From a virus, in IMG/VR virus record IMGVR_UViG_3300022542_000190, positions 1 through 44,774 of that record: DNA of 44,774 nt. One strand, 5' to 3'. The notes beneath the pieces were generated by a model that did not search any database, was not told where the DNA came from, and worked only from the letters and a program-made list of their open reading frames with translations. The translations under genes and the position numbers were made by a program. Shown here piece by piece: positions 19,704-44,774 of the stretch (position 1 is the first letter of the stretch; each line of letters starts with the position of its first letter).

Positions 19704-20408
19704 TTAAACTCCTTTATTAAATTCTTTTTTAAACGCCTTTACTGAGGCTGGCACAATAGGTTCAATTAATTCTAATAGTGCATCAGAATAAACTCTGATT
19801 TCATATTGAGCATGTGCATGTGAACGTTCAGCAATAAACTTAAATAAATTATTAAGATTTACAGTAGCAAACATATGGCTGTAAGTACCAAAAGGCAATT
19901 TTGTCCTAGCTAATTCGCGGGGACAGCCAAGTTCTAATAATTTATGGTATTCTTCAAAATCCCTAGTGTTGCCTCTGTGCAAGATAGATTGAATCTCTAA
20001 GGCATTAGGATTAGGTTCATTTGTGCGCATTTGTTTGTTATCAGTAGATTGTGTAGTTATCTGGTCAAGTTCTGGAATATAAAATATTTCAGGCAACTCT
20101 CTGTATCGTGCGCTTAATTCATTATACGATTGAGTACGATGTCTGTGCCACTGCCTGAACACGAAAATAGGAGCTTTGATTTCAAAGGTAAATGTCATAG
20201 CTTCAAAGGGGGTATTATGTCCATTGGCATATAAAAAATTAATTAGTTTTTCATCTTCGGGCCTGCCCTCAGCATCATAAGACACACGCGCGTTGCGAGA
20301 AATTTCTAAATCGCCATTCCAATCATCCGTTTTATTTTCAGGTACTGGTTGCATGTACGATACTAAACGTATTAATCCGTGGTCTAGTACTTGTATATTT
20401 GTTTTCAT
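19704..20408 (-). CDS. thyX: FAD-dependent thymidylate synthase ThyX
   Basis: Signature WHRHRTQSYNELSARY (RHRxxS...S-x-R-Y). Start placed at ATG 20408, which has an AGGAAGG RBS. Confidence 0.9.
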   Translation of the reverse strand: MKTNIQVLDHGLIRLVSYMQPVPENKTDDWNGDLEISRNARVSYDAEGRPEDEKLINFLYANGHNTPFEAMTFTFEIKAPIFVFRQWHRHRTQSYNELSARYRELPEIFYIPELDQITTQSTDNKQMRTNEPNPNALEIQSILHRGNTRDFEEYHKLLELGCPRELARTKLPFGTYSHMFATVNLNNLFKFIAERSHAHAQYEIRVYSDALLELIEPIVPASVKAFKKEFNKGV

Positions 20409-20409
20409 T

Positions 20410-21726
20410 TCAGCCTTCCTTCTTTTGTTGTGGTTCATCTATTAATTCATTAAACACTTGTGATAAATCTTCATTATAAACAAATGCCATTCCATCATCA
20501 GTCTCTACTTTAATTAATTTATGTCCGTTAACTAAATCAGCTACTGCATTTTTGAAATCTATTAATCTCATATCTCTACGCATCATTGCCCATAGTATAT
20601 CTGAATTCACAGGACCGTTTGCATGTTGAATAAATTCAATCATCTTTTGTCTAGCTAGAGCAATCGGAGATAAACCATATTCGCCGAGCGCATCAGGCAT
20701 AGATTTTTCAGTTTCCAATAATATCTCATGGGCTAGTTGAATATCTTTTTGTTCTATTGTTGCACGTTCATTTGTTGCAGCCAGAACCATTGCGACTTTT
20801 TCTAAATGTGTATGGCGGCGCATTGCATAAAACACAAATCGCGTATCAGGTATTTGGATTTCCTGATTATAGATATCATCTTCTAAACTGATTGCGCCTT
20901 TAGATAACATCATTGGAGTTCTGAAATCGTAGAACAAATGTTTATACATGTCACCTAAAGTATCTTCGAGTTCAGGTTTCACGTAGGATTTAGAAGGTGG
21001 TAATTTCTTACCTCGATGTGCTGCATGTACTAATATAATACGTGACATAAAGCCTTGACCTATCGCTTCCGCAGGTAATAGAGAAGCTAAATCTGCCGAA
21101 GTAGTACCGCCTAGTAAGTTTAACAATGCGTTTTTCAGCGTATGATGTTCCTTGCGGATTTTGTATCTGTAATCTTCCGCATCCCACATCTTGTTTAAGA
21201 ACCTTGTCATTTCTAGAGAGCCTTGTCCTAAGAAAGAACCAAATTCTGTAGCACAGATAAACAAAGTATGAGCATCTGGATTACTTGCGAAAACTTCCAT
21301 CTTAGTATTGCCCAATAAATCTATATCGGAATCTCCATCGAATAGATTAATATCTGTGACAGTAGAATCCTGCAACTGTGCAGCGATGTTATCTTTTTCT
21401 GAATCTTCTAGTGCTACGATTAAACCTTGGCGCTGTCCACCTGTATCATCAGGTGCGAATTTCACATTCGTATAACGCTTCATGAGATTAACTGGATAAT
21501 TAATCGCTGCATTTTTGCGAGTTCCTGGAGGCCCAACTAGAAGGCAATACATATTAGGATAGACATTGCCTATACCTAGTTTTAAATAAGTATGCCTGCC
21601 CAAACACGCAGCTGCTGTACACAAAGCCGCCCAAGTATGCATTGTTAAAGGGGATTCAGTATGTTCAACGTAGTCTAAATGTGTTTTAAGGAAATCGTTT
21701 TTGTTTACTAAGTCAACTATGGACAC
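20410..21726 (-). CDS. P-loop NTPase, DUF3987-like putative replicative helicase or primase-associated ATPase
   Basis: Deviant Walker A LLVGPPGTRKN preceded by HTWAALCTAAACLG. Located in the replication module. Confidence 0.45.
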   Translation of the reverse strand: MSIVDLVNKNDFLKTHLDYVEHTESPLTMHTWAALCTAAACLGRHTYLKLGIGNVYPNMYCLLVGPPGTRKNAAINYPVNLMKRYTNVKFAPDDTGGQRQGLIVALEDSEKDNIAAQLQDSTVTDINLFDGDSDIDLLGNTKMEVFASNPDAHTLFICATEFGSFLGQGSLEMTRFLNKMWDAEDYRYKIRKEHHTLKNALLNLLGGTTSADLASLLPAEAIGQGFMSRIILVHAAHRGKKLPPSKSYVKPELEDTLGDMYKHLFYDFRTPMMLSKGAISLEDDIYNQEIQIPDTRFVFYAMRRHTHLEKVAMVLAATNERATIEQKDIQLAHEILLETEKSMPDALGEYGLSPIALARQKMIEFIQHANGPVNSDILWAMMRRDMRLIDFKNAVADLVNGHKLIKVETDDGMAFVYNEDLSQVFNELIDEPQQKKEG

Positions 21727-32453: not shown

Positions 32454-32482
32454 TGTAGTAGTTCCTTTTTGGTTGGTTGTTG

Positions 32483-32683
32483 TTATAAATTTAATGCGAT
32501 TCTTATTTTTATAAAATCTAACATTTGTGCTTTTGTGTAATGTAGTTTGTTATCATTTAAAGGTGCTCCGATACTGTATAAAATATTATACACATCATCA
32601 TGGCCTTTAGCGTATAGTTTTATTTGTTCTTTTAAATCTTCTATCTCTAATTGTTGCTTAGTTATCAGTTCATTTTCATTCAT
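32483..32683 (-). CDS. Hypothetical coiled-coil protein (66 aa)
   Basis: AAGGAA RBS. Confidence 0.45.
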   Translation of the reverse strand: MNENELITKQQLEIEDLKEQIKLYAKGHDDVYNILYSIGAPLNDNKLHYTKAQMLDFIKIRIALNL

Positions 32684-32970
32684 TTTTATAGTTCCTTATC
32701 TGCGGTTGTAATAAAATCAAAATCGTTTATCAGGGTGGGTATTATTGCCAAATTAGTCAGGAGTAAAGCGTAACCATTCGGCAGATTTTCACTTTTAGAA
32801 CGCAGAACGTTATCCGTCCTACGGACATGGTAAATTGCGTAAAGGTTCTTAATTCTAAACTCTCAGGGCTTTGCAGCCCTTCTAGTTTAAACAAATCAAA
32901 ACCCAAATATTTGAAATCTACGTTTCGCATTGCTTTGTTTCGCTCACGCTCCACGGCGCAAAACTCAACC
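32684..32970 (-). other. 287-bp non-coding gap with structured elements (candidate ncRNA or regulatory region)
   Basis: No convincing ORF. Extended hairpin at 32854-32891 capped on the minus strand by a GCAA (GNRA) loop. Second hairpin GTCC-GTA-GGAC. Long-range complementarity between GCGAAACGU and ACGUUCUGC. Confidence 0.4.
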
Positions 32971-34758
32971 CTAGCTAATCTCCGTCGGTTCTGCCAAATT
33001 CGGCATTATAGTATCTTGCTTACCTGATAGTTTAATAAACTGCTCTGCTTTCTCTGCAATAGTTTTGCCTTTTAGCAATTGGCGGTTGATAGCTTGTGTA
33101 ATTCCGCGCTGATTAGTCAGTAGGATAACTCTTTCTTTCGCTCTAGTTGTAACTGTGTATAACCATTCGCGTGTAAGCATTATTAAATTAGCGGAATGAA
33201 CTAATATAACAACAGTTGGATATTCTGAGCCTTGTGACTTATGACCAGTCATTGCGTATGAGTGAATAATCTTCTGAAATGAACCCGCACTTTCAAAGTA
33301 AACAGGTTCATCTACATTTTGAAACTTAACCCGCATTGAGTGCGAGGCCTGCCGTTCGGATTCCTCAACTTCATCTTTTACATTTTCCTGCGAGTCTATC
33401 TCGTCTTTCAAATTGGATAAGTCTATAATCGCATCTGATTTTAAACCAGCTAACATTTGTTCTGCTATGGCTTCGCCTTTGAATCGTTTGTTAGGTGCGA
33501 TTTCCTCAATCACGCCTATCATTCCATTAGTTAAACCTTTCTCACGGTCGTTAGCTGTCAACATAACCTTGTCGCCGATTGCGAAAGTATGATGGTGATA
33601 ACCCGCTGTAATAACTACAGGTGGATTAATCGGAATACCTTCAATTTCGCGCGTAGGATTGAAATATCTAACTAACTTTTCATTAAAAGCAACTTGGCCT
33701 AGTGTATCTTTATTTTGTGGAACTATGAAAGCATCTTCTAATGGATTGAATAATCCTTTTTTATGTAACGTCTGGATAACCGCGCAGGATTTCGTAAAGG
33801 CGGAAAAGGCGGAATCGGGCAAATCCATAATCACGAATTTCTTATCATCTTTCACAGGTCTACGGCCTTTTATAATTCTATCTGCATTGGCTATTATAGG
33901 ATTGTCCGCAGCTTGGCGGTGAATCGTATCTAGTACGAAAGTCGGCCATTTAGTTATTGCGAAGCCTAGAACAGAGCGACCTGTAACTGGTGGCAACTGG
34001 TTTAAATCCCCGATTAATATAAATCTACAATTATCAGGACAAGCTGCGATAAGTTCATTCCATAGATAAATAGGTACACTACCAGCTTCATCTACTATTA
34101 CAAGTTTCAAGTTTAATTTGTTATGCTTCGTAAATTGAGGACGGAAAACCTTAACTTGGCGCATTTCCTTAGTTTCTGGGTCTAGTTTATCTATGTACTC
34201 AGGCGCATATCCCAGCGTGCTATGTATAGTATTGCAAAGTTCGTGATATTCAGTAGGTAATGCACGTTTAATTTGCTGAACTGCTTTACCCATAAACGAT
34301 ACAAAAGCCACAGATATATTTAAATCTTTTGTATCTGTTCGGTGATTTTCCAATCGGTTTTGGTTTAAATCTATCGTTGGGATAGTCGGTAAAATCCTGT
34401 TTAATATTTCCTTAACAACTGTTGTTTTACCCACGCCAGCCTGACCGATTAGACAACCGTATTTTTGAAACTCTAAACCCTCTACAGCTTTTAACTGAGA
34501 ATCATCTAATATAATACTAGAATCGGTTAAATTAGAGGGTAAGTTTAAATCAATTAAACCCTCTAATTCTTCTCGATGTTCTTTGCCGAATTCGTAACTC
34601 TTAGCCTGCTGCTTTTCTATATCTCGCTCAGCTTGTTCGGCTTTACGTTTGGTAATACCTGAGCCGCGAATTGTGGAATTAACCACGGATTTTATAAGTG
34701 GCTTGTGTTTCGTTTTACTGGATTTATTTAATAAATCTTTCAGTGATTGTTTACTCAT
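32971..34758 (-). CDS. RecD/Dda-like SF1 DNA helicase
   Basis: Walker A GQAGVGKTT, Walker B VIVDEAGSV, then GDLNQLPPV, TIHRQ, MTGHKSQGSEYP and YTVTTRAKERV. Confidence 0.85.
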   Translation of the reverse strand: MSKQSLKDLLNKSSKTKHKPLIKSVVNSTIRGSGITKRKAEQAERDIEKQQAKSYEFGKEHREELEGLIDLNLPSNLTDSSIILDDSQLKAVEGLEFQKYGCLIGQAGVGKTTVVKEILNRILPTIPTIDLNQNRLENHRTDTKDLNISVAFVSFMGKAVQQIKRALPTEYHELCNTIHSTLGYAPEYIDKLDPETKEMRQVKVFRPQFTKHNKLNLKLVIVDEAGSVPIYLWNELIAACPDNCRFILIGDLNQLPPVTGRSVLGFAITKWPTFVLDTIHRQAADNPIIANADRIIKGRRPVKDDKKFVIMDLPDSAFSAFTKSCAVIQTLHKKGLFNPLEDAFIVPQNKDTLGQVAFNEKLVRYFNPTREIEGIPINPPVVITAGYHHHTFAIGDKVMLTANDREKGLTNGMIGVIEEIAPNKRFKGEAIAEQMLAGLKSDAIIDLSNLKDEIDSQENVKDEVEESERQASHSMRVKFQNVDEPVYFESAGSFQKIIHSYAMTGHKSQGSEYPTVVILVHSANLIMLTREWLYTVTTRAKERVILLTNQRGITQAINRQLLKGKTIAEKAEQFIKLSGKQDTIMPNLAEPTEIS

Positions 34759-35022: not shown

Positions 35023-36246
35023 TCAATCCTTATCTTTATTTATATTAATATTTAACTTAAGTTTAAAACCTTGCTTCGGTGCTTTAAATCTGTTTAAGGG
35101 TTCACCTGTAATACAATCTAAACCTTGCTGATTAGCATCGAATAATCTCGAATTTCCGCGCCCTTTGAAATCTTTCAACAAATCATCGTTTTCCGTTTCC
35201 TTATCCCAGAAGCCCTTCAAATCATATAATATAGACTCTTTGTTATTCTGATTTCTGATTGACGGCTGTTTATGAAAATTCGACAACCCGCTAAACCTAG
35301 CTTTAATTTCTGCAATTGTTCCCGAATGCAAATTTTCATTCTTTAACTTAACTGCATAGCCTTCTTGTTTCTTATGCTTAACTCTTTTAAAGTGCGTAGT
35401 AAATAATAACTTAATCGCGGTCTTTAATTCTTCTGTAAACAGTTTTAGACTTGTACTATCTTCTGTAACTTCGTGCAGGAATGAGAATGAAAACTTAACT
35501 AGACTAGCGACTTTCTCCGGATTCGCTAAACCTAAAAATCGCCGCAACAACTCGTTGCATTCAGTTATATCTAATTCATCGTGATATAAGTTTAAATTTC
35601 TATTCGCTATTATTTTATCTTGCAAGTTAAAATATCTCACAGATATATTAGCCGGTATATCATTACTAAAGAAATCCTCGGGCTTATCTTGTTGTGGAAA
35701 GTCACTAAGGAAATCTGTTAAATTCTTATCTTCTGTACTTTCCTTGCCAGCTTGTGACATTGGCGGTTTTGTATTTAAATTGGATTTCTTAACAATATCA
35801 GCATGGAATAAATAACTAGCTGCATAGATGAAAAATCCCTGTGGGTCGAAGTACATCAACTTATTCAGCGTTTTCGGTTCCGAGTGCAACCATAGTGGGT
35901 TGTACTTCGCGCAAGCATCCAGCCTTAACAATTCCAATGCTTCCTCTTTCCCATGTACTGCAATCAATAACTTTAACTTATCAATATCTACTTTGTTCAA
36001 CTCCGCACCTGTTTTATTACAATACTGAATCATCAAAGGTGCAAAATCTTTGTCATTTGCCGTTAACAATAAATTCAAATCTATTTTACTAGTCTCTCTT
36101 TCTATCTTATTTTCTACTGCATTTAAATTAACACTAATTAATCTATCTAGTGCTTTTTCAAATATCTTTTTATTGTGTAAAATCTCATTCTTTTTGTATC
36201 TTTTTCTGTTTGTTTTATTCTCTATTTGTTCTGTAAATTCTATCAT
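35023..36246 (-). CDS. Orphan 407-aa protein, first gene of the leftward arm next to the repeat hub
   Basis: AAAGGA RBS. K/N/E-rich with no recognisable catalytic motif. Confidence 0.6.
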   Translation of the reverse strand: MIEFTEQIENKTNRKRYKKNEILHNKKIFEKALDRLISVNLNAVENKIERETSKIDLNLLLTANDKDFAPLMIQYCNKTGAELNKVDIDKLKLLIAVHGKEEALELLRLDACAKYNPLWLHSEPKTLNKLMYFDPQGFFIYAASYLFHADIVKKSNLNTKPPMSQAGKESTEDKNLTDFLSDFPQQDKPEDFFSNDIPANISVRYFNLQDKIIANRNLNLYHDELDITECNELLRRFLGLANPEKVASLVKFSFSFLHEVTEDSTSLKLFTEELKTAIKLLFTTHFKRVKHKKQEGYAVKLKNENLHSGTIAEIKARFSGLSNFHKQPSIRNQNNKESILYDLKGFWDKETENDDLLKDFKGRGNSRLFDANQQGLDCITGEPLNRFKAPKQGFKLKLNININKDKD

Positions 36247-36359
36247 TACTTATTTATCCTTTTAATTAAATTTAATATTCTAATCCTCACGAATTGCTAT
36301 TTATAATTTAATCTTAGTTGTTATTACTTATAAATCAATTTTTATTTTCTAACCCTACG

Positions 36360-36388
36360 AGGGTATCATATCCTTTAATCCTTGTCAA
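36360..36388 (-). promoter_or_regulatory. Candidate leftward promoter: TTGACA, N17, TACCCT
   Basis: Minus strand reads GAAGAAAGGAC TTGACAAGG ... TACCCT. The upstream and -35 block resembles 43744-43766. The palindrome ACCCT-CGT-AGGGT overlaps the -10. Confidence 0.4.
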
Positions 36389-36470
36389 GTCCTTTCTTCA
36401 TATTTATTCTTGAGGGCTTTCCCCGCTTCTATTCCTTATATATAGGGCTTTAAAAAACTATTCTCTTACA

Positions 36471-36542
36471 ACATTTCATAAACCATAACATAACAACATT
36501 TCCTTTCCACATTTCATAACCCATACCATTACGGATTACACC
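36471..36542. repeat. Left arm of a long imperfect inverted repeat (perfect 20-bp core ATACCATTACGGATTACACC at 36523-36542)
   Basis: The reverse complement of 37035-37098 starts with ACATTTCAT and ends with the identical 20-mer. The arm also contains the direct repeat ACATTTCATAA(A)CC at 36471 and 36509. Confidence 0.85.
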
Positions 36543-36628
36543 ACTTTATGACCTGCACACGCAAAACCCTAATTGACCCCTATTTTCAAAACTCCCTATA
36601 ACTTTTATTCACCCCTTAATCTATATCT

Positions 36629-36664
36629 AGTTATCCCTATAGTTATCTACCCAGTTATCACCAG
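36629..36664. repeat. Three tandem 12-bp units AGTTATCnnnnn
   Basis: AGTTATCCCTAT, AGTTATCTACCC and AGTTATCACCAG, read directly. Confidence 0.85.
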
Positions 36665-36760
36665 TACTTCTATCCCTCCCCTTATGATTATTAAATTTTA
36701 GCAGGGGTCTATATACTATGTTATGTTATACCTTATGAAATCTCCTTTATGCCTTTCACT

Positions 36761-36814
36761 TATCTATTTTATCTATTCTACCTGTACTATCTACTCTATC
36801 TATTCTATCTGCAC
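36761..36814. repeat. Six tandem 9-bp units (consensus TATCTAYTC), iteron-like
   Basis: TATCTATTT, TATCTATTC, TACCTGTAC, TATCTACTC, TATCTATTC and TATCTGCAC, read directly. Confidence 0.9.
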
Positions 36815-36949
36815 TAACTAATAATACGTCTAAGGGGACTTTTTTTAATAACCTCTTATCTAAATATACCCCCCTTCTAAATTTCAATAATCATATATAC
36901 CAATAACTATCCTAACTCTATCTAGTCTAGATCCTAACTGTACACACTA

Positions 36950-36967
36950 TATCTATTCTATCTGTAG
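36950..36967. repeat. Two more copies of the 9-bp unit (TATCTATTC, TATCTGTAG)
   Basis: The 15-mer TATCTATTCTATCTG is identical to 36797-36811. Confidence 0.9.
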
Positions 36968-37034
36968 ACACCAATCGCTAGGATGTTTTCAAAACTACCC
37001 CCTATTACGATTCTGCGTCTGCACCCTAGAAATC

Positions 37035-37098
37035 GGTGTAATCCGTAATGGTATCGTTATTGTTATGGTTATGGTTATGGTTATTAACCATGAAATGT
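37035..37098. repeat. Right arm of the long inverted repeat; includes five tandem GTTATK hexamers (37056-37085)
   Basis: GGTGTAATCCGTAATGGTAT is the exact reverse complement of 36523-36542. The hexamers are GTTATT, GTTATG x3 and GTTATT. Confidence 0.85.
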
Positions 37099-37131
37099 CG
37101 TTGAAATCTAAACAATTATTTAATTATAAAT

Positions 37132-37159
37132 TTGCATACTGATTTATCTATGTTATACT
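37132..37159 (+). promoter_or_regulatory. Sigma70-type promoter with extended -10 (TTGCAT, N16 ending in TGT, TATACT)
   Basis: Read directly, 60 nt upstream of ATG 37219. Same architecture as 38083-38110. Confidence 0.65.
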
Positions 37160-37218
37160 TAATAAGTAAGTTAAAAAAGTAGATACTTAATTAATCATAA
37201 TCAAAAAGGAACAGCAAA

Positions 37219-37992
37219 ATGAACGAAGCAAACACAGCAGAAGTAGCAGAAGTAGCAGAACATGAAGCACCTCAAGCACCAAATAACAGTGAAGTAACTG
37301 TGCAGGACATCGAAAAGAAGCATTTCGCACCTGAACAACTTGAAGCTGGTTCTAATTACATCAACGAAGTTATGCAAATCTGTTCTAAAGAAAACATTGA
37401 GCCGATTTTCAACTTTGACCCAGAAGGCGAATTTCCTGAAAGCTACGGTCTAGCAATTATCCCATTGCAAAAACGTATACCAGAACGTGGCAATTTAACT
37501 TACGGCATTGTAATTGCAGCTATTCCTTCAGTTGATGCACTTGCAGCCGAAGAAGCTGGGATTAACTACATCAGCAAACTAGTAACAGATGCTTTAATTC
37601 GTCAAGTTACAGTTTCAGCTAAACCAAAAGACGAAGGCGCGGCAATTTCTATTCCGTTTAAATTGGAAGAGTTCACAACGACTTCTCGCAGTTCTGGCCT
37701 AGCTGCATTCAACGCGGTTGCAACTGACTATGTTAAAGCATTAAAAACTAAGGGCTTAAAGTTCATGTCTAAAGTTTTACTTCGTCAGGTTCTAGCATCA
37801 GCGCAATTTGCTGAACAACAGTTTCCTCGTTTATCACAGGAAAATTGGCAACTAGTTTTACAGTCAATGATTCAACACGTGAAAGCTAAAGGTATGGAAT
37901 CTGGTATTTTGGCTCATTGGGTTAAAACTCGTGATGAAGTAGAAATTGATGTAACAGAAATTGATCTTTCAGATTTAGACTCTATGGTCTAA
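37219..37992 (+). CDS. Orphan 257-aa protein in its own promoter-terminator cassette
   Basis: AAAGGAA RBS, acidic N-terminus. Promoter at 37132 and terminator at 38024. Confidence 0.65.
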   Translation: MNEANTAEVAEVAEHEAPQAPNNSEVTVQDIEKKHFAPEQLEAGSNYINEVMQICSKENIEPIFNFDPEGEFPESYGLAIIPLQKRIPERGNLTYGIVIAAIPSVDALAAEEAGINYISKLVTDALIRQVTVSAKPKDEGAAISIPFKLEEFTTTSRSSGLAAFNAVATDYVKALKTKGLKFMSKVLLRQVLASAQFAEQQFPRLSQENWQLVLQSMIQHVKAKGMESGILAHWVKTRDEVEIDVTEIDLSDLDSMV

Positions 37993-38023: not shown

Positions 38024-38057
38024 AAGGCTGGGATAATAGAGTCCTAGCCTTATTTTT
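38024..38057 (+). terminator. Rho-independent terminator
   Basis: AAGGCTGGGA, 8-nt loop, TCCTAGCCTT, then ATTTTT. Confidence 0.75.
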
Positions 38058-38082
38058 AATTTAATTCCTTTTGATTGTTTAC

Positions 38083-38110
38083 TTGCTTTATCTCTCTACT
38101 ATGCTATACT
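38083..38110 (+). promoter_or_regulatory. Sigma70-type promoter with extended -10 (TTGCTT, N16 ending in TGC, TATACT)
   Basis: Read directly, 34 nt upstream of ATG 38144. Confidence 0.65.
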
Positions 38111-38350: not shown

Positions 38351-38373
38351 CTCTGTAAATTAATTATTTTGAA

Positions 38374-38399
38374 GGGGGGCGGTATCCCCCCTTTTTTTT
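38374..38399 (+). terminator. Rho-independent terminator
   Basis: GGGGGG, CGGTAT loop, CCCCCC, then T8. Confidence 0.85.
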
Positions 38400-38500
38400 A
38401 ATCTCCGTGGGGGTATAAATTGTCACTCCTAAATTTTTACTAAAGATTTACAGAATTACGATTTTGACCAAAATTTAAATAATAAGAAGGATAATCCGAT

Positions 38501-38877: not shown

Positions 38878-39480
38878 ATGGAAACTAAACACGTAGAGAA
38901 AATTGCAAAAATGGTTATGGCAAATGTACCACAGAACCAAATTGCTGCAGCGTGTGGAGTTTCCGAAGGTCGTATAAGTCAATTAATGGAAACCAATGAA
39001 TATAAAATCATTGAGCAATCTGTAGCTGTTGCGAAATTCGAAGAGAGCCAGTTGATAAATCAGGGCTGGGATTCAGTGGAAGCTCTCGGAGTTAAATCAA
39101 CTATTGTTGCATTACAACATAATCCGGACCCTGAATTCGCATTAAAGGCAGCAGTCGTTGCGAATAAAGCTATAAGAAGAGGAACTTTCGAGAACAATCC
39201 AATCCCACAATCTGCCGGAGTTCGTGCAGTCATTCACCTGAATCCAGTTTTCGTAGATAAGCTTCAGCAAAACTTCGAAGTATCAGCAAAGAAAATGAAT
39301 CTATTAGCAGAAAAACCTAAGGATTCAGATTTCATGCCGGCTGCCGAAGTACATAATTTATTAGGTTTAGGTAATGATGGTAAAGTTGTAGAAAATAACG
39401 TAGCGATTCCTGTAACAAGTCCTGAGATAGATGCAGATTTACCACTATTAAATGAGTTGGATTTAAACAATGGCGAGTGA
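38878..39480 (+). CDS. terS: Terminase small subunit (putative)
   Basis: N-terminal HTH (NQIAAACGVSEGRISQLM). Sits immediately upstream of the large terminase and overlaps it. Confidence 0.6.
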   Translation: METKHVEKIAKMVMANVPQNQIAAACGVSEGRISQLMETNEYKIIEQSVAVAKFEESQLINQGWDSVEALGVKSTIVALQHNPDPEFALKAAVVANKAIRRGTFENNPIPQSAGVRAVIHLNPVFVDKLQQNFEVSAKKMNLLAEKPKDSDFMPAAEVHNLLGLGNDGKVVENNVAIPVTSPEIDADLPLLNELDLNNGE

Positions 39481-40939
39481 ATCAGTCCCAGTCCAGCTGT
39501 CAAAAGAACAGATTAAGTATGCCTTGCAGCATGATAGAGAATTCTTTATCCAATTCTTTTTGGGTTCTGAAATAGATTTACCTGTTCCAGCATTTCATCC
39601 TGAGATTTTCTCTCTCATGGTAGATGACACTTCAGACAAGTTTGCCTGTGCTGTTCCTCGTGACCACGCGAAAACTACACTGGCGAAATTGACAGCAGTT
39701 TGGTATTTCTTATATTCCGATTTCCGTTTTATCCTATACATGTCTAACACAGTTACTATCGCAGTTCCTTCTGTAAATGATATTATAAACTTTCTGGAGT
39801 GTGATAATTTTAGAGCAGTTTATGGCGAATTACAGTGGCATACTCGACAAGATGGTAAAGGTCTATACAAATTTAATATTGGTAAGAAAGTTTGCATATT
39901 AAGAGCCCACGGCGCAGGCATGCAAGTTCGCGGTATTAACATTGATAACCAAAGACCTCAGTTATTAATTTGTGATGATATAGAAGATGCAGTTAATATA
40001 GCTACACCTGAATTATTCATGAAATTAAAGCGGTGGTTCTACGGCCCATTAAAAAAGGCTATGGATAAATTCAAACATAAGATTATTCATATTGGCAATC
40101 TCGTAGAGAACAGATGTTTAATCGCAGAACATTGTCAATCTAAATATTGGTCTTCACGAATTTACGGTTGTCTATTATCTAATGGTGAATCTTTGTGGCC
40201 TGATGCTTGGCCTGTTGATAAGTTACGTAGAGATTTCATGGAATATTTAGAAGCTGGGCTGGCCGATGTATGGTTTGCGGAAATGATGAATATGCCAACG
40301 GCTGGCGGACGTGGAATTATACGTGCAGAAGAGATATTCTATGCTCCGCCGAAATTACCCGAAGAGATGGAATTCGGTTTTATCACAATTGATTTGGCAA
40401 TATCAGAACAAACTTGGGCACACAAAACTGTAGTTGCTTGTCACGGGTTCTTTCCTGAAGAATCAGTTAACGGAATGTGGCAAGCTGTAGATTATGCAGG
40501 TTATCATGGAATTGACCCGATTCCACTATTCTGGGAAGTTATTAAATTCTGCAAAAAGTGGAAAATCGCAACGGTGGGAATCGAAGCTGTTGCATATCAA
40601 GCGGCATTGAAACCAGTTTTCGAACATGAATGTCTACGTAATGGCATTGTCGGAATTGAATTTGTACAGTTACAAGCTATTGGCAGAAAAGCACAACGAA
40701 TTATAACTTGGGCATCTATGATTAAAGCTAAAGAATATGCATTAACTCATGGCGATTTTACAATAACCCAAGAACTTCTAACCTACCGACCAGACAAAAG
40801 AGACAACACAGACGATCATATTGATTGCTACGCATATGCACCTCAAATGATGAATAACTTTATGCACTTAATCATGCAAGAATATACCGTCAACACACAC
40901 AATGAAATTTCAGGCTCTTATTCGATTTGTGAAATTTAA
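39470..40939 (+). CDS. terL: Terminase large subunit
   Basis: Walker A-like AVPRDHAKTT, Walker B LLICDDIED, and nuclease acidic residues ITIDLAIS and DDHIDCYAYA. Confidence 0.9.
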   Translation: MASESVPVQLSKEQIKYALQHDREFFIQFFLGSEIDLPVPAFHPEIFSLMVDDTSDKFACAVPRDHAKTTLAKLTAVWYFLYSDFRFILYMSNTVTIAVPSVNDIINFLECDNFRAVYGELQWHTRQDGKGLYKFNIGKKVCILRAHGAGMQVRGINIDNQRPQLLICDDIEDAVNIATPELFMKLKRWFYGPLKKAMDKFKHKIIHIGNLVENRCLIAEHCQSKYWSSRIYGCLLSNGESLWPDAWPVDKLRRDFMEYLEAGLADVWFAEMMNMPTAGGRGIIRAEEIFYAPPKLPEEMEFGFITIDLAISEQTWAHKTVVACHGFFPEESVNGMWQAVDYAGYHGIDPIPLFWEVIKFCKKWKIATVGIEAVAYQAALKPVFEHECLRNGIVGIEFVQLQAIGRKAQRIITWASMIKAKEYALTHGDFTITQELLTYRPDKRDNTDDHIDCYAYAPQMMNNFMHLIMQEYTVNTHNEISGSYSICEI

Positions 40940-44175: not shown

Positions 44176-44774
44176 ATGCTTGGATTTATGAATAAACAAA
44201 ATAACGATAGCAATAACCAGAATCAGAACCAAAATCAGAATAATAACCAAAATAACCAGAATCAAAATCAAAATTCTTCTGATAACAATAACGATAACAA
44301 TAACAATAATGATAATGATAACAACAACAATAACCAAAACAATAACATGGACAATAACACGTCTATTTGGGATAATAATGCTAATGATTCAGAAAACAAC
44401 AATCAACAACAGCAACAACAAAACAATCAAAATGCTGAAACACGTACGCCAAATGAAATTTTCAACGAACATGTTGCAGGTTTAGATTTAACTTCTGGAA
44501 TTGATTTAACCCAGTTACAAGAAGATGCACAAAACGGTAATACAGATTCATTAAATAAAGCTTTTGAAACTGTAGCATCAAATGTTTACAAAGCTTCTCT
44601 ACAACAAATGAATACTTTAGTTGATAATAAAATAACTACTGCTATTGATAAAGCTGTATCTGAATCTACTTCTGTAATGAATGAATCTACAGCAGTTAAA
44701 GAAATGCAAGCTGCTCTACCATTCACTTCAGATAAAAATATAGCTCCTGTTGCTGAAGCAGCATTGAAACAAAT
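44176..44774 (+). CDS. N-terminal part of the N/Q-rich putative scaffolding protein (continues at position 2 across the junction)
   Basis: ATG 44176 with a GAGGA RBS. About 80 residues are almost pure N/Q/D, followed by an alpha-helical-looking body. Confidence 0.5.
   Translation, partial: MLGFMNKQNNDSNNQNQNQNQNNNQNNQNQNQNSSDNNNDNNNNNDNDNNNNNQNNNMDNNTSIWDNNANDSENNNQQQQQQNNQNAETRTPNEIFNEHVAGLDLTSGIDLTQLQEDAQNGNTDSLNKAFETVASNVYKASLQQMNTLVDNKITTAIDKAVSESTSVMNESTAVKEMQAALPFTSDKNIAPVAEAALKQ
44634..44774. repeat. Second copy of the 141-bp terminal duplication
   Basis: Identical to 1-141. Confidence 0.95.

Follow-up and report, generated by a model that had tools for sequence, protein, structure and literature searches.

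Results

Genome and setting of the element

We analyzed IMG/VR virus record IMGVR_UViG_3300022542_000190 over its full length of 44,774 nucleotides (the window), and we concentrate here on a 972-bp divergent intergenic region (36247–37218) in which a tandem array of short repeats sits in the middle of a long imperfect palindrome. The first 141 bases of the window are identical to its last 141 (1–141 and 44634–44774), so it is a complete circular phage genome of 44,633 bp. The window is also identical to a contig of a JGI metagenome. An overlap of this size is probably what an assembler run at k = 141 left behind.

The genes form two arms. The rightward arm starts at 37219, continues across the circle junction to 18223, and encodes a helix-turn-helix (HTH) protein resembling the small terminase (TerS), the large terminase (TerL), the portal, a scaffold-like protein and the major capsid protein. 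From 36246 down to 18304 lies the leftward arm, which encodes a 407-amino-acid (407-aa) protein, a RecD/Dda-type helicase, an exonuclease, a Sak4-like ATPase, a family A DNA polymerase (PolA), a DUF3987 primase-type protein and ThyX. The intergenic region thus has the replication arm on its left and the packaging and structural arm on its right. Within it, 36266–37200 is the sole stretch of more than 157 bp in the whole genome without an open reading frame (ORF) of at least 50 aa, counting both strands. What looked like a second non-coding gap at 32454–32970 was rejected because there are short genes inside it. The features of the region are as follows.

36360–36388, minus strand: promoter P_L, sigma-70-type, TTGACA-N17-TACCCT; assigned to the leftward arm and kept in relatives
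36468–37101, no strand: imperfect palindrome, a conserved cis-element, from the alignment of the region with its own reverse complement; equivalents in 16 related loci
36470–36573, plus strand: left arm, a CATTTC/CATAAC hexamer array and then the conserved blocks CATACCATTACGGATTACACC and TGCACACGCAAAACCCTAAT
36683–36714, minus strand: inner inverted-repeat arm I2-left, holding the left-pointing family motif (reverse complement TATAGACCCCTGCTAAAATTT; core 36693–36708)
36749–36761, plus strand: 13-mer ATGCCTTTCACTT directly left of the array; conserved in the window, L032, L033 and L045
36761–36814, plus strand: tandem array of two 27-bp units (36761–36787 and 36788–36814), each TATCTAYTY, TATCTATTC, TAYCTGYAC; on the dyad axis of the palindrome
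36864–36895, plus strand: inner inverted-repeat arm I2-right, holding the right-pointing family motif ATATACCCCCCTTCTAAATTT (core 36868–36884)
36917–36929, plus strand: degenerate copy CTCTATCTAGTCT of the array element, weaker than the others
36950–36967, plus strand: distal direct copy, the 18-mer TATCTATTCTATCTGTAG, in the right arm; kept only in the window and L032
37004–37101, plus strand: right arm, the mirror copies TTCTGCGTCTGCA and GGTGTAATCCGTAATGGTAT, then a GTTATG array, then ATGAAATGT
37131–37159, plus strand: promoter P_R, sigma-70-type, TTTGCA-N17-TATACT with a TG; assigned to the rightward arm

The two promoters mark the outer edges. The -35 box of P_L lies within the palindromic CTTGTCAAG, and P_R takes the form TTGCAT/TAGACA-N16/17-TATAAT in relatives. 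We read P_L off the sequence together with its relatives. A simple promoter scan was not significant by itself; over the region the scan gave 9 sites against 6.6 ± 2.6 by chance, which is not above chance. There is also a rightward promoter-like site, TTGTCA-N17-TATTCT, at 36382–36410 that is retained in four of five close relatives.

The plus strand is heavily depleted in G from about 35,900 to 36,990 (GC skew -0.4 to -0.7). G content is 5–12% over the left arm and center, falling to 5% across 36468–36682, and the strand is strongly pyrimidine-rich. The depletion sets in within the 5' end of the 407-aa gene and continues past the dyad axis, so that it is not accounted for by the palindrome. 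It is common to all close relatives, with G making up 9–11% of their intergenic regions.

Database searches with the region itself were negative. Rfam gave no match (the window at the gathering threshold, the region at E<=1), no tRNA or tmRNA was found, and the DNA of the region had no similarity to any of 50,697 phage records. We found no relatives in bacterial genomes or plasmids, and hence have no host assignment and no support for an episomal form.

Anatomy of the palindrome

When the region was locally aligned with its own reverse complement, we obtained a 634-bp imperfect palindrome (36468–37101) with a score of 180, as compared with 45 ± 12 for shuffles and 46–64 for coding controls. 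Its dyad axis is at about 36785–36789, the junction of the two 27-bp units of the array. The array is bracketed by the inner inverted repeat I2, which is 32 nt long and 84% complementary. The motif in I2-right is the best conserved block of the region, and one of the only two runs of six Cs in the 44.6-kb genome is found there. Farther out, each side has a hexamer array with a conserved block inward of it, and these blocks are mirror images (CATACCATTACGGATTACACC and TGCACACGCAAAA). The GTTATG array on the right holds six copies of ATGGTT at 37048–37084.

The element has three layers: divergent host-type promoters on the outside, then inverted arrays of phage-specific short repeats, and then the central motif or motifs consisting of a C-run and an A-run. 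Helix stability is low over 36,580–36,940 (about -42 to -47 kcal per 40 bp), and this part is held between two symmetric and stabler clamps at 36520–36580 and 36960–37060. The lowest stability in the region is at its edges and not in its center.

We saw no compensatory change between the two I2 arms; the left copy has decayed and only the right one is conserved. This argues against a required hairpin or RNA stem. We also considered a protelomerase with hairpin telomeres and rejected it: a direct repeat or an asymmetric motif, and not a perfect palindrome, occupies the axis, and no tyrosine-recombinase-like protein was found.

Conservation in related phages

Scans of IMG/VR with TerL and the helicase gave 30 loci, and 13 database homologues of the 407-aa protein (37–89% identity) led to eight syntenic loci. 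Single-protein scans of IMG/VR with the 407-aa protein and with a 257-aa protein found no close relatives, and the relatives used here (given as locus numbers such as L032) all came from the searches with TerL and the helicase and from the protein database.

In the close clade, each of the eight genomes carries a palindrome of 600–730 bp at the equivalent site, with scores of 108–306 against 43–84 for shuffles. Nine more distant loci have a palindrome of 380–750 bp. The architecture is kept across phages whose TerL proteins are only 41–84% identical.

The sequence of the arms is another matter. The arm repeats vary by phage, for example TAACCTAAC in L004, CCTGACG/TGACGCA in L023 and ACACTGACGATA in L024. 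A left arm has more 8-mers in common with the reverse complement of the right arm in the same phage than with arms from other phages, which means that the two arms evolve in concert. Judged from this pattern of sequence change, concerted evolution points to a single binding protein that co-evolves with the repeats.

At the axis, we found a motif that the family shares, TA(T/G)ACCCC(CC)-N2-8-(C/T)AAAA(A)TT(T), or in short form TATACCCCCC-N-AAATTT. It occurs in two arrangements. In L037, L044, L004, L024, L023, L022, L005 and L003 there is a single motif on the dyad axis. In the window, L032, L035, L045 and L046 it is an outward-facing inverted pair, 90–160 bp apart, with the axis between the two copies. 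Every one of the eight close-clade members has the motif on the axis or a divergent pair straddling it. In the genome, the axis motif is unique to this site, and it is conserved together with several arm blocks while the DNA around them has diverged. A looser version is present in the divergent region of Pseudomonas phage 119X; that intergenic region (1718–2095) carries GGGGGGAGGGGGGTGTATCATATACCACTCAACAAAAATTT, which resembles the axis motif.

The tandem array

The array was what first drew attention to this region. The original prediction described it as an iteron-like array of 9-bp TATCTAYTC units, six in tandem plus two distal copies, and proposed an iteron-type origin or cooperative DNA-looping operators. 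The repeats are real, lie where they were placed and are beyond chance. Direct reading bears out the exact 9-bp period from 36761 to 36814, with six units in the order TATCTATTT, TATCTATTC, TACCTGTAC, TATCTACTC, TATCTATTC, TATCTGCAC. Tandem Repeats Finder reports 5.6 copies at period 9 (78% match, score 65) and 2.2 copies at period 27 (84% match, score 85). Since period 27 scores higher, we describe the array as two 27-bp units of three 9-bp units each, in which two TATCTAYTY units are followed by one divergent TAYCTGYAC unit. The six tandem units stand, while the supposed two distal copies are a single 18-mer.

The 15-mer TATCTATTCTATCTG has exact copies at 36797 and 36950, which are 153 bp apart, and no others in the genome. 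With up to three mismatches it has 13 matches, against 2.8 ± 1.8 in shuffles (none of 100 shuffles reached 13), and five of the 13 fall in this region. There is a further weaker copy of the array element at 36621–36631. TATCTA hexamers are concentrated here as well: 10 of the 39 plus-strand copies in the genome are inside the 972-bp region, which has one copy on the minus strand. The 9-bp units were unpaired in all of our foldings (z = -1.2 for plus-strand DNA and -3.2 for minus-strand RNA).

A search of IMG/VR with the exact motif TATACCCCCCTTCTAAA gave one match, in L042, which is unrelated and due to chance. A metagenome scan with the 14-mer TATGCCTTTCACTT, a pattern that is too short, returned at least 120 random matches, none of them related by blastn or tblastn.

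We then come to the relatives, where the array fares differently from the palindrome. No part of the region is less conserved than the spacer between the paired motifs. Only the window shows significant periodicity there, at 27 and 9 bp, and L032 is marginal. In L032, whose 407-aa protein is 89% identical, there is TATCTATTC followed by 2.7 copies of TAACTATAC, which is again a 9-bp array but with a different unit and fewer copies. L032 has kept the distal copy, in which T is replaced by A just as in the copy at its own apex (TATCTATTCTAACT in both). In L035 there are three units of 10 bp with another sequence. The spacers of L033, L045 and L046 show no significant periodicity, and in L037 and L044 the spacer is missing. 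The original prediction had called for a check of repeat number and phase in relatives, with absence or loss of phase in close relatives of the same gene order refuting it. This is what we see: the array is absent or unphased in L033, L035, L037, L044, L045 and L046, all of which keep the gene order, and for the array itself the proposal fails.

Going by these comparisons, the array is a young, lineage-specific tandem amplification of an 18–27-bp element common to the window and L032, and it most likely arose by replication slippage. The functional unit is the palindrome and not the array.

Iterons are typically 17–22 bp long, number 3–7 or more, keep helical phase, are conserved along with a Rep gene and lie near DnaA boxes and an AT-rich unwinding element. 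What we have does share with the iteron origins of plasmids and lambdoid phages a set of tandem direct repeats with a distal partner in a non-coding control region. However, neither the period (9 or 27 bp) nor the copy number resembles classical iterons; in place of three or more phased direct repeats of about 17–22 bp, there are 9-bp units in two 27-bp repeats plus an 18-mer. The array is not conserved, and no Rep-like domain was recognized in the adjacent 407-aa protein, a conserved neighbor. No DnaA boxes (TTATCCACA-type, up to one mismatch) were found in 36247–37218, and helix stability is lowest at the margins of the region instead of in an adjacent unwinding element. Our finding corrects a tempting reading in which visible tandem repeats are taken for functional iterons. 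The wider idea that a protein-recognized control element lies here fits the anatomy of the large non-coding region with its inverted, concertedly evolving, phage-specific repeats, but is not supported for the TATCTAYTC array.

A possible concatemer junction or genome terminus

We tentatively favor the view that the palindrome is the concatemer junction or terminus of the phage genome together with the region that terminase recognizes, although we would put this at somewhat short of an even chance. The small terminase (the HTH protein at 38878–39480) or another phage protein would load onto the arm repeats, and cutting would take place at the C-run motif or motifs. Because the paired motifs are inverted, a single enzyme could nick opposite strands 90–160 bp apart, and fill-in synthesis would then leave the array inside a short direct terminal repeat. 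As spacer or as part of that repeat, the array would hardly depend on its exact sequence. What the data show is the anatomy and its conservation, the arms evolving in concert and the array not being conserved; where the ends lie, that the DNA is cut, which protein binds and the nick and fill-in step are inferred. A terminus and an origin are not exclusive, and the element may also hold the replication origin.

Several observations argue for a terminus. The region is the sole long non-coding stretch, it lies at the boundary of the arms, and the genes for the TerS-like protein and TerL start 1.7–2.3 kb to its right. A unique axis motif also fits what would be expected of a single cut or recognition site. 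On the same side we count the concerted evolution of the arms, the rarity of C6 runs in this genome and the poor conservation of the spacer between the paired motifs.

There are podoviruses with a comparable layout. Caulobacter phage Kuura has a 606-bp direct terminal repeat as determined by PhageTerm (PMC9959647). That repeat spans the divergent junction, and the Kuura major capsid protein is 28% identical to the one here. LUZ24 and tf have direct terminal repeats of 184 and 186 bp at the junction of their two arms (PMC3517423), with the boundaries GGGGAATATC/CCCCC and GGGGGGAAT/ATCCC, where the slash marks the repeat boundary. As here, all three phages have a non-coding junction of about 1 kb or longer between a divergent early or replication arm and a structural arm that begins with terminase, outward host-type promoters, and C-run or G-run plus AT motifs at the repeat boundaries. 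The LUZ24 and tf repeats are also comparable in length to the 90–160-bp spacing of the motifs. Unlike the window, none of these junctions has a long palindrome, the proteins are at best 27–30% identical, and the ends in our case are predicted from sequence.

We had first thought of PaP2, 119X and PaMx41 as LUZ24-like, but rejected this as their records place them in Fredfastierviridae; LUZ24 and tf therefore serve only as analogues of layout. The 119X record ends within a TATCCCCC / ATAGGGGGTTAAAAAATT cluster. This cluster at the record ends (L049/L050, NC_007807) is mirror-like, TATCCCCC...TATCCCCCTTATA / TAAG...GATAGGGGGTTAAAAAATT, and resembles the axis motif. In the divergent region of Polaromonas phage Tiera (L048 93–872; OQ067478 43392–44171), outer inverted repeats (TCGATGTAC...ATGTTCGTTAT and ATAACGAACAT...GTACATCGA) enclose a segment of about 72 bp, AGTATCCGGTGGGCGCG...GGGGATATAACGAAC, that is perfectly duplicated in tandem. 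This is a looser version of the layout in the window.

Better known systems offer a parallel too. At the T7 concatemer junction, the terminal repeat is flanked by the SRL and SRR short-repeat arrays, and lambda cosN (within cosN/cosB/cosQ) has two-fold symmetry and is nicked on opposite strands. In both, as proposed here, short-repeat arrays or protein-binding sites stand on either side of a cut site or terminal repeat. The differences are that there is no sequence similarity, that the symmetry here is far more extensive, and that the function here is predicted.

A number of points weigh against a terminus. Terminase recognition is usually asymmetric, packaging being directional, and a 600-bp dyad is thus not what one expects of a pac or cos region. 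The contigs of the relatives run through the region; L043 alone breaks, in the left-arm repeats. We had tried contig ends as a proxy for physical ends and rejected them, as the L043 break is an assembly effect and all other contigs run through. TerL is only 27–29% identical to that of any cultured phage, the best being Tiera and the PaP2/119X-like phages. Of these, the PaP2/119X-like phages are described just as "terminally redundant" (PMC13348215), and the type of end is not reported for Tiera. The LUZ24 and tf boundaries and the 119X ends do resemble the axis motif, but the likeness is loose and could be coincidence. No long palindrome is present at the LUZ24, tf and Kuura junctions. Finally, the equivalent region of c2-type lactococcal phages is a proven origin, with cos elsewhere (PMC7150918).

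A possible replication origin

The main rival to the terminus is that the palindrome is a dyad-symmetric bidirectional origin, which we regard as possible but the less likely of the two. An initiator or helicase would bind the inverted arm arrays, which would then be the true "iterons", and melt the center. Forks would leave in both directions, co-directional with the transcription of each arm, and the TATCTA array would be a variable center or extra sites specific to the lineage.

Much of the anatomy suits an origin. Inverted, phage-specific arrays that evolve in concert flank a center of low stability, bracketed by the two stabler clamps. The element is at the divergence of the arms, and cumulative GC skew peaks at their convergence point near 18.3 kb, although the skew is confounded with gene orientation. 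The phage encodes a replisome (PolA, the DUF3987-containing primase-type protein and the RecD/Dda-type helicase at 32971–34758). If the region were transcribed leftward, the pyrimidine-rich plus strand and the conserved C-run would favor a stable purine-rich RNA:DNA hybrid.

The origins of SV40, papillomaviruses, herpes simplex virus (HSV; oriS) and the satellite phage P4 are typically dyad-symmetric. As in the SV40/polyomavirus core, the papillomavirus E1 site, HSV oriS and the P4 origin, we find two inverted sets of putative recognition repeats around a center that should melt easily. Those origins span tens of bp to about 150 bp and have a known initiator, whereas the element here is about 390–750 bp. 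An experimental precedent comes from c2-type phages (Ceduovirus), in which the origin is a non-coding region between the divergent early and late blocks of a small lytic phage of about 36% G+C, and is strongly type-variable (PMC7150918). The element here also lies in a non-coding region between divergent early and late blocks. Both lack ORFs and ribosome-binding sites, and in both the sequence diverges fast, while in c2 the position and function are kept (PMC7150918). The c2 origin differs in being defined by two early promoters and a non-coding primer transcript rather than a 600-bp dyad, its cos ends are far from the origin, and there is no sequence or protein similarity.

What counts against an origin is that no candidate protein has a known origin-binding domain, that there are no DnaA boxes, that helix stability is lowest at the edges of the region and not in the center, and that the C-run motif resembles the termini of other podoviruses.

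Candidate binding proteins

Two proteins encoded near the element come into consideration first.

35023–36246, minus strand: 407-aa protein, first gene of the leftward arm; member of a widespread uncharacterized family and conserved neighbor of the palindrome
38878–39480, plus strand: 200-aa protein with an N-terminal HTH, whose gene overlaps the start of the large terminase gene (39470–40939); probable small terminase

The 407-aa gene had been singled out as an orphan and an obvious candidate binder. It is no orphan, as there are 13 close homologues and a profile search collected 184 cluster representatives at 50% identity. A gene of this family adjoins the palindrome even in distant loci (e.g. 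L003 3962–5026, L005 3558–4745 and L024 4383–5126). No match was found for the protein in Pfam, PDB, NCBIfam or PHROG, no family member had a meaningful Pfam match, and no DNA-binding or Rep-like domain was recognized. AlphaFold gave a poor model from 13 sequences, with a predicted local distance difference test (pLDDT) score of 53. From a 72-sequence alignment it gave a pLDDT of 77, with two helical domains above 90. A Foldseek search with the model found nothing in PDB or BFVD (E>1).

Synteny makes the 407-aa protein a legitimate candidate binder, but a binding role for it is pure conjecture. The TerS-like HTH protein, which is probably the small terminase and may bind the arm repeats, and the DUF3987 protein are at least as plausible. 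The latter, a "primase" (20410–21726, minus strand; DUF3987 domain, E 3e-16), is a candidate origin-binding helicase or primase. The gene after it (19704–20438, minus strand) encodes a ThyX-type thymidylate synthase (E 2e-43).

One could go further and suppose that the 407-aa family and the palindrome make up an undescribed origin or terminus system, in which the protein binds the arm repeats as two opposed assemblies and opens or cuts the DNA at the axis motif, with the apex repeats as extra sites. The family is consistent with this in having 184 clusters, a predicted all-helical fold without a PDB or BFVD neighbor, and a gene that is always beside the element. We consider such a system unlikely.

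Other explanations

The looping operators of the original prediction would have a phage regulator co-ordinate P_L and P_R through DNA looping. Conserved sigma-70-type promoters do lie at both outer edges, with arm arrays upstream of each, and the apex and distal 18-mer copies are 153 bp apart and show a concerted one-base change in L032. However, in OL/OR-type control of the lambda kind the operators overlap the promoters and a repressor gene is adjacent. The TATCTA array overlaps neither promoter, each being about 370 bp away, which places it badly for an operator, and it is missing in most relatives that retain both promoters. The arm arrays are 80–160 bp upstream of P_L and not over it. We found no repressor-like protein and no repressor-like gene adjoining the region, where the only nearby HTH is that of the TerS-like protein. 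It is also hard to see why an early and a late promoter should be under strictly symmetric control, and we judge looping to be improbable.

We give very little weight to coding by the array, as a 28-aa ORF (36735–36821, plus strand, MKSPLCLSLIYFIYSTCTIYSIYSICTN) in which the 9-bp units would spell Ile-Tyr-Ser: the period is divisible by three, and from the shared conserved start TTATGAAA L032 has an in-frame 21-aa ORF (MKSYICLSLIYSNYTNYTNYR) and L035 a 26-aa ORF, but there is no Shine-Dalgarno before the ORF whereas the flanking genes have AAGGA, the frame is lost in L033 and L045, the segment is missing in L037, the repeat period in L035 is 10 bp, the conserved blocks have no third-position pattern, and G depletion is region-wide regardless of frame. 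It is just as hard to credit that the palindrome has no sequence-specific function and is kept by gene conversion between inverted duplicates, with the array as slippage noise; the array is indeed not conserved, and palindrome apices are known hot spots for slippage, but the architecture is conserved across phages of 41–84% TerL identity, the axis motif and several arm blocks are conserved amid diverged DNA, and the genome, tightly packed as it is, tolerates no other long non-coding stretch.

Other features of the genome

Some further observations concern the neighboring genes. There are two clear intrinsic terminators after the 257-aa and 68-aa genes, at 38024–38056 and 38372–38400 (e.g. GAAGGGGGGCGGTATCCCCCCTTTTTTTT), and a TGnTATACT promoter-like site at about 38072–38110 between them. 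Judged from these, the first two genes of the rightward arm seem to form transcription units of their own, with the terminase operon behind them. On the other side, some relatives have an extra small gene of 57–89 aa between P_L and the 407-aa homologue (L032 at about 1283–1456, L043 152–382 and L044 2583–2852), which makes the leader of the leftward arm a hot spot for gene insertion.

Dense short tandem repeats (AATCAA, 13 copies of ATAACA and 10 of AAC) are also found at 44215–44432. They are coding and rich in Asn, Gln and Asp, near the N-terminus of the scaffold-like protein (ORF from about 44176 across the junction to 349) and upstream of the major capsid gene. We considered the ATAACA repeats at 44.3 kb as a third arm-type array and rejected them because they are a coding Asn/Gln-rich low-complexity stretch.

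Significance

Although the origins and packaging sites of uncultured phages determine how the genome is replicated, cut and oriented, they are hardly ever annotated. This clade is a clean comparative case, with one non-coding element, a conserved dyad and axis motif, and arm repeats that change in concert, and from the concerted pattern of the arms it should be possible to predict the binding protein. Should the element be an origin, it would be exceptionally large for the dyad-symmetric origin of a bacteriophage. If the genome ends map to the paired motifs, there would be a simple route to short terminal repeats, in which one site-specific enzyme nicks inverted sites, and we would have a rule for orienting the metagenomic contigs of this group.

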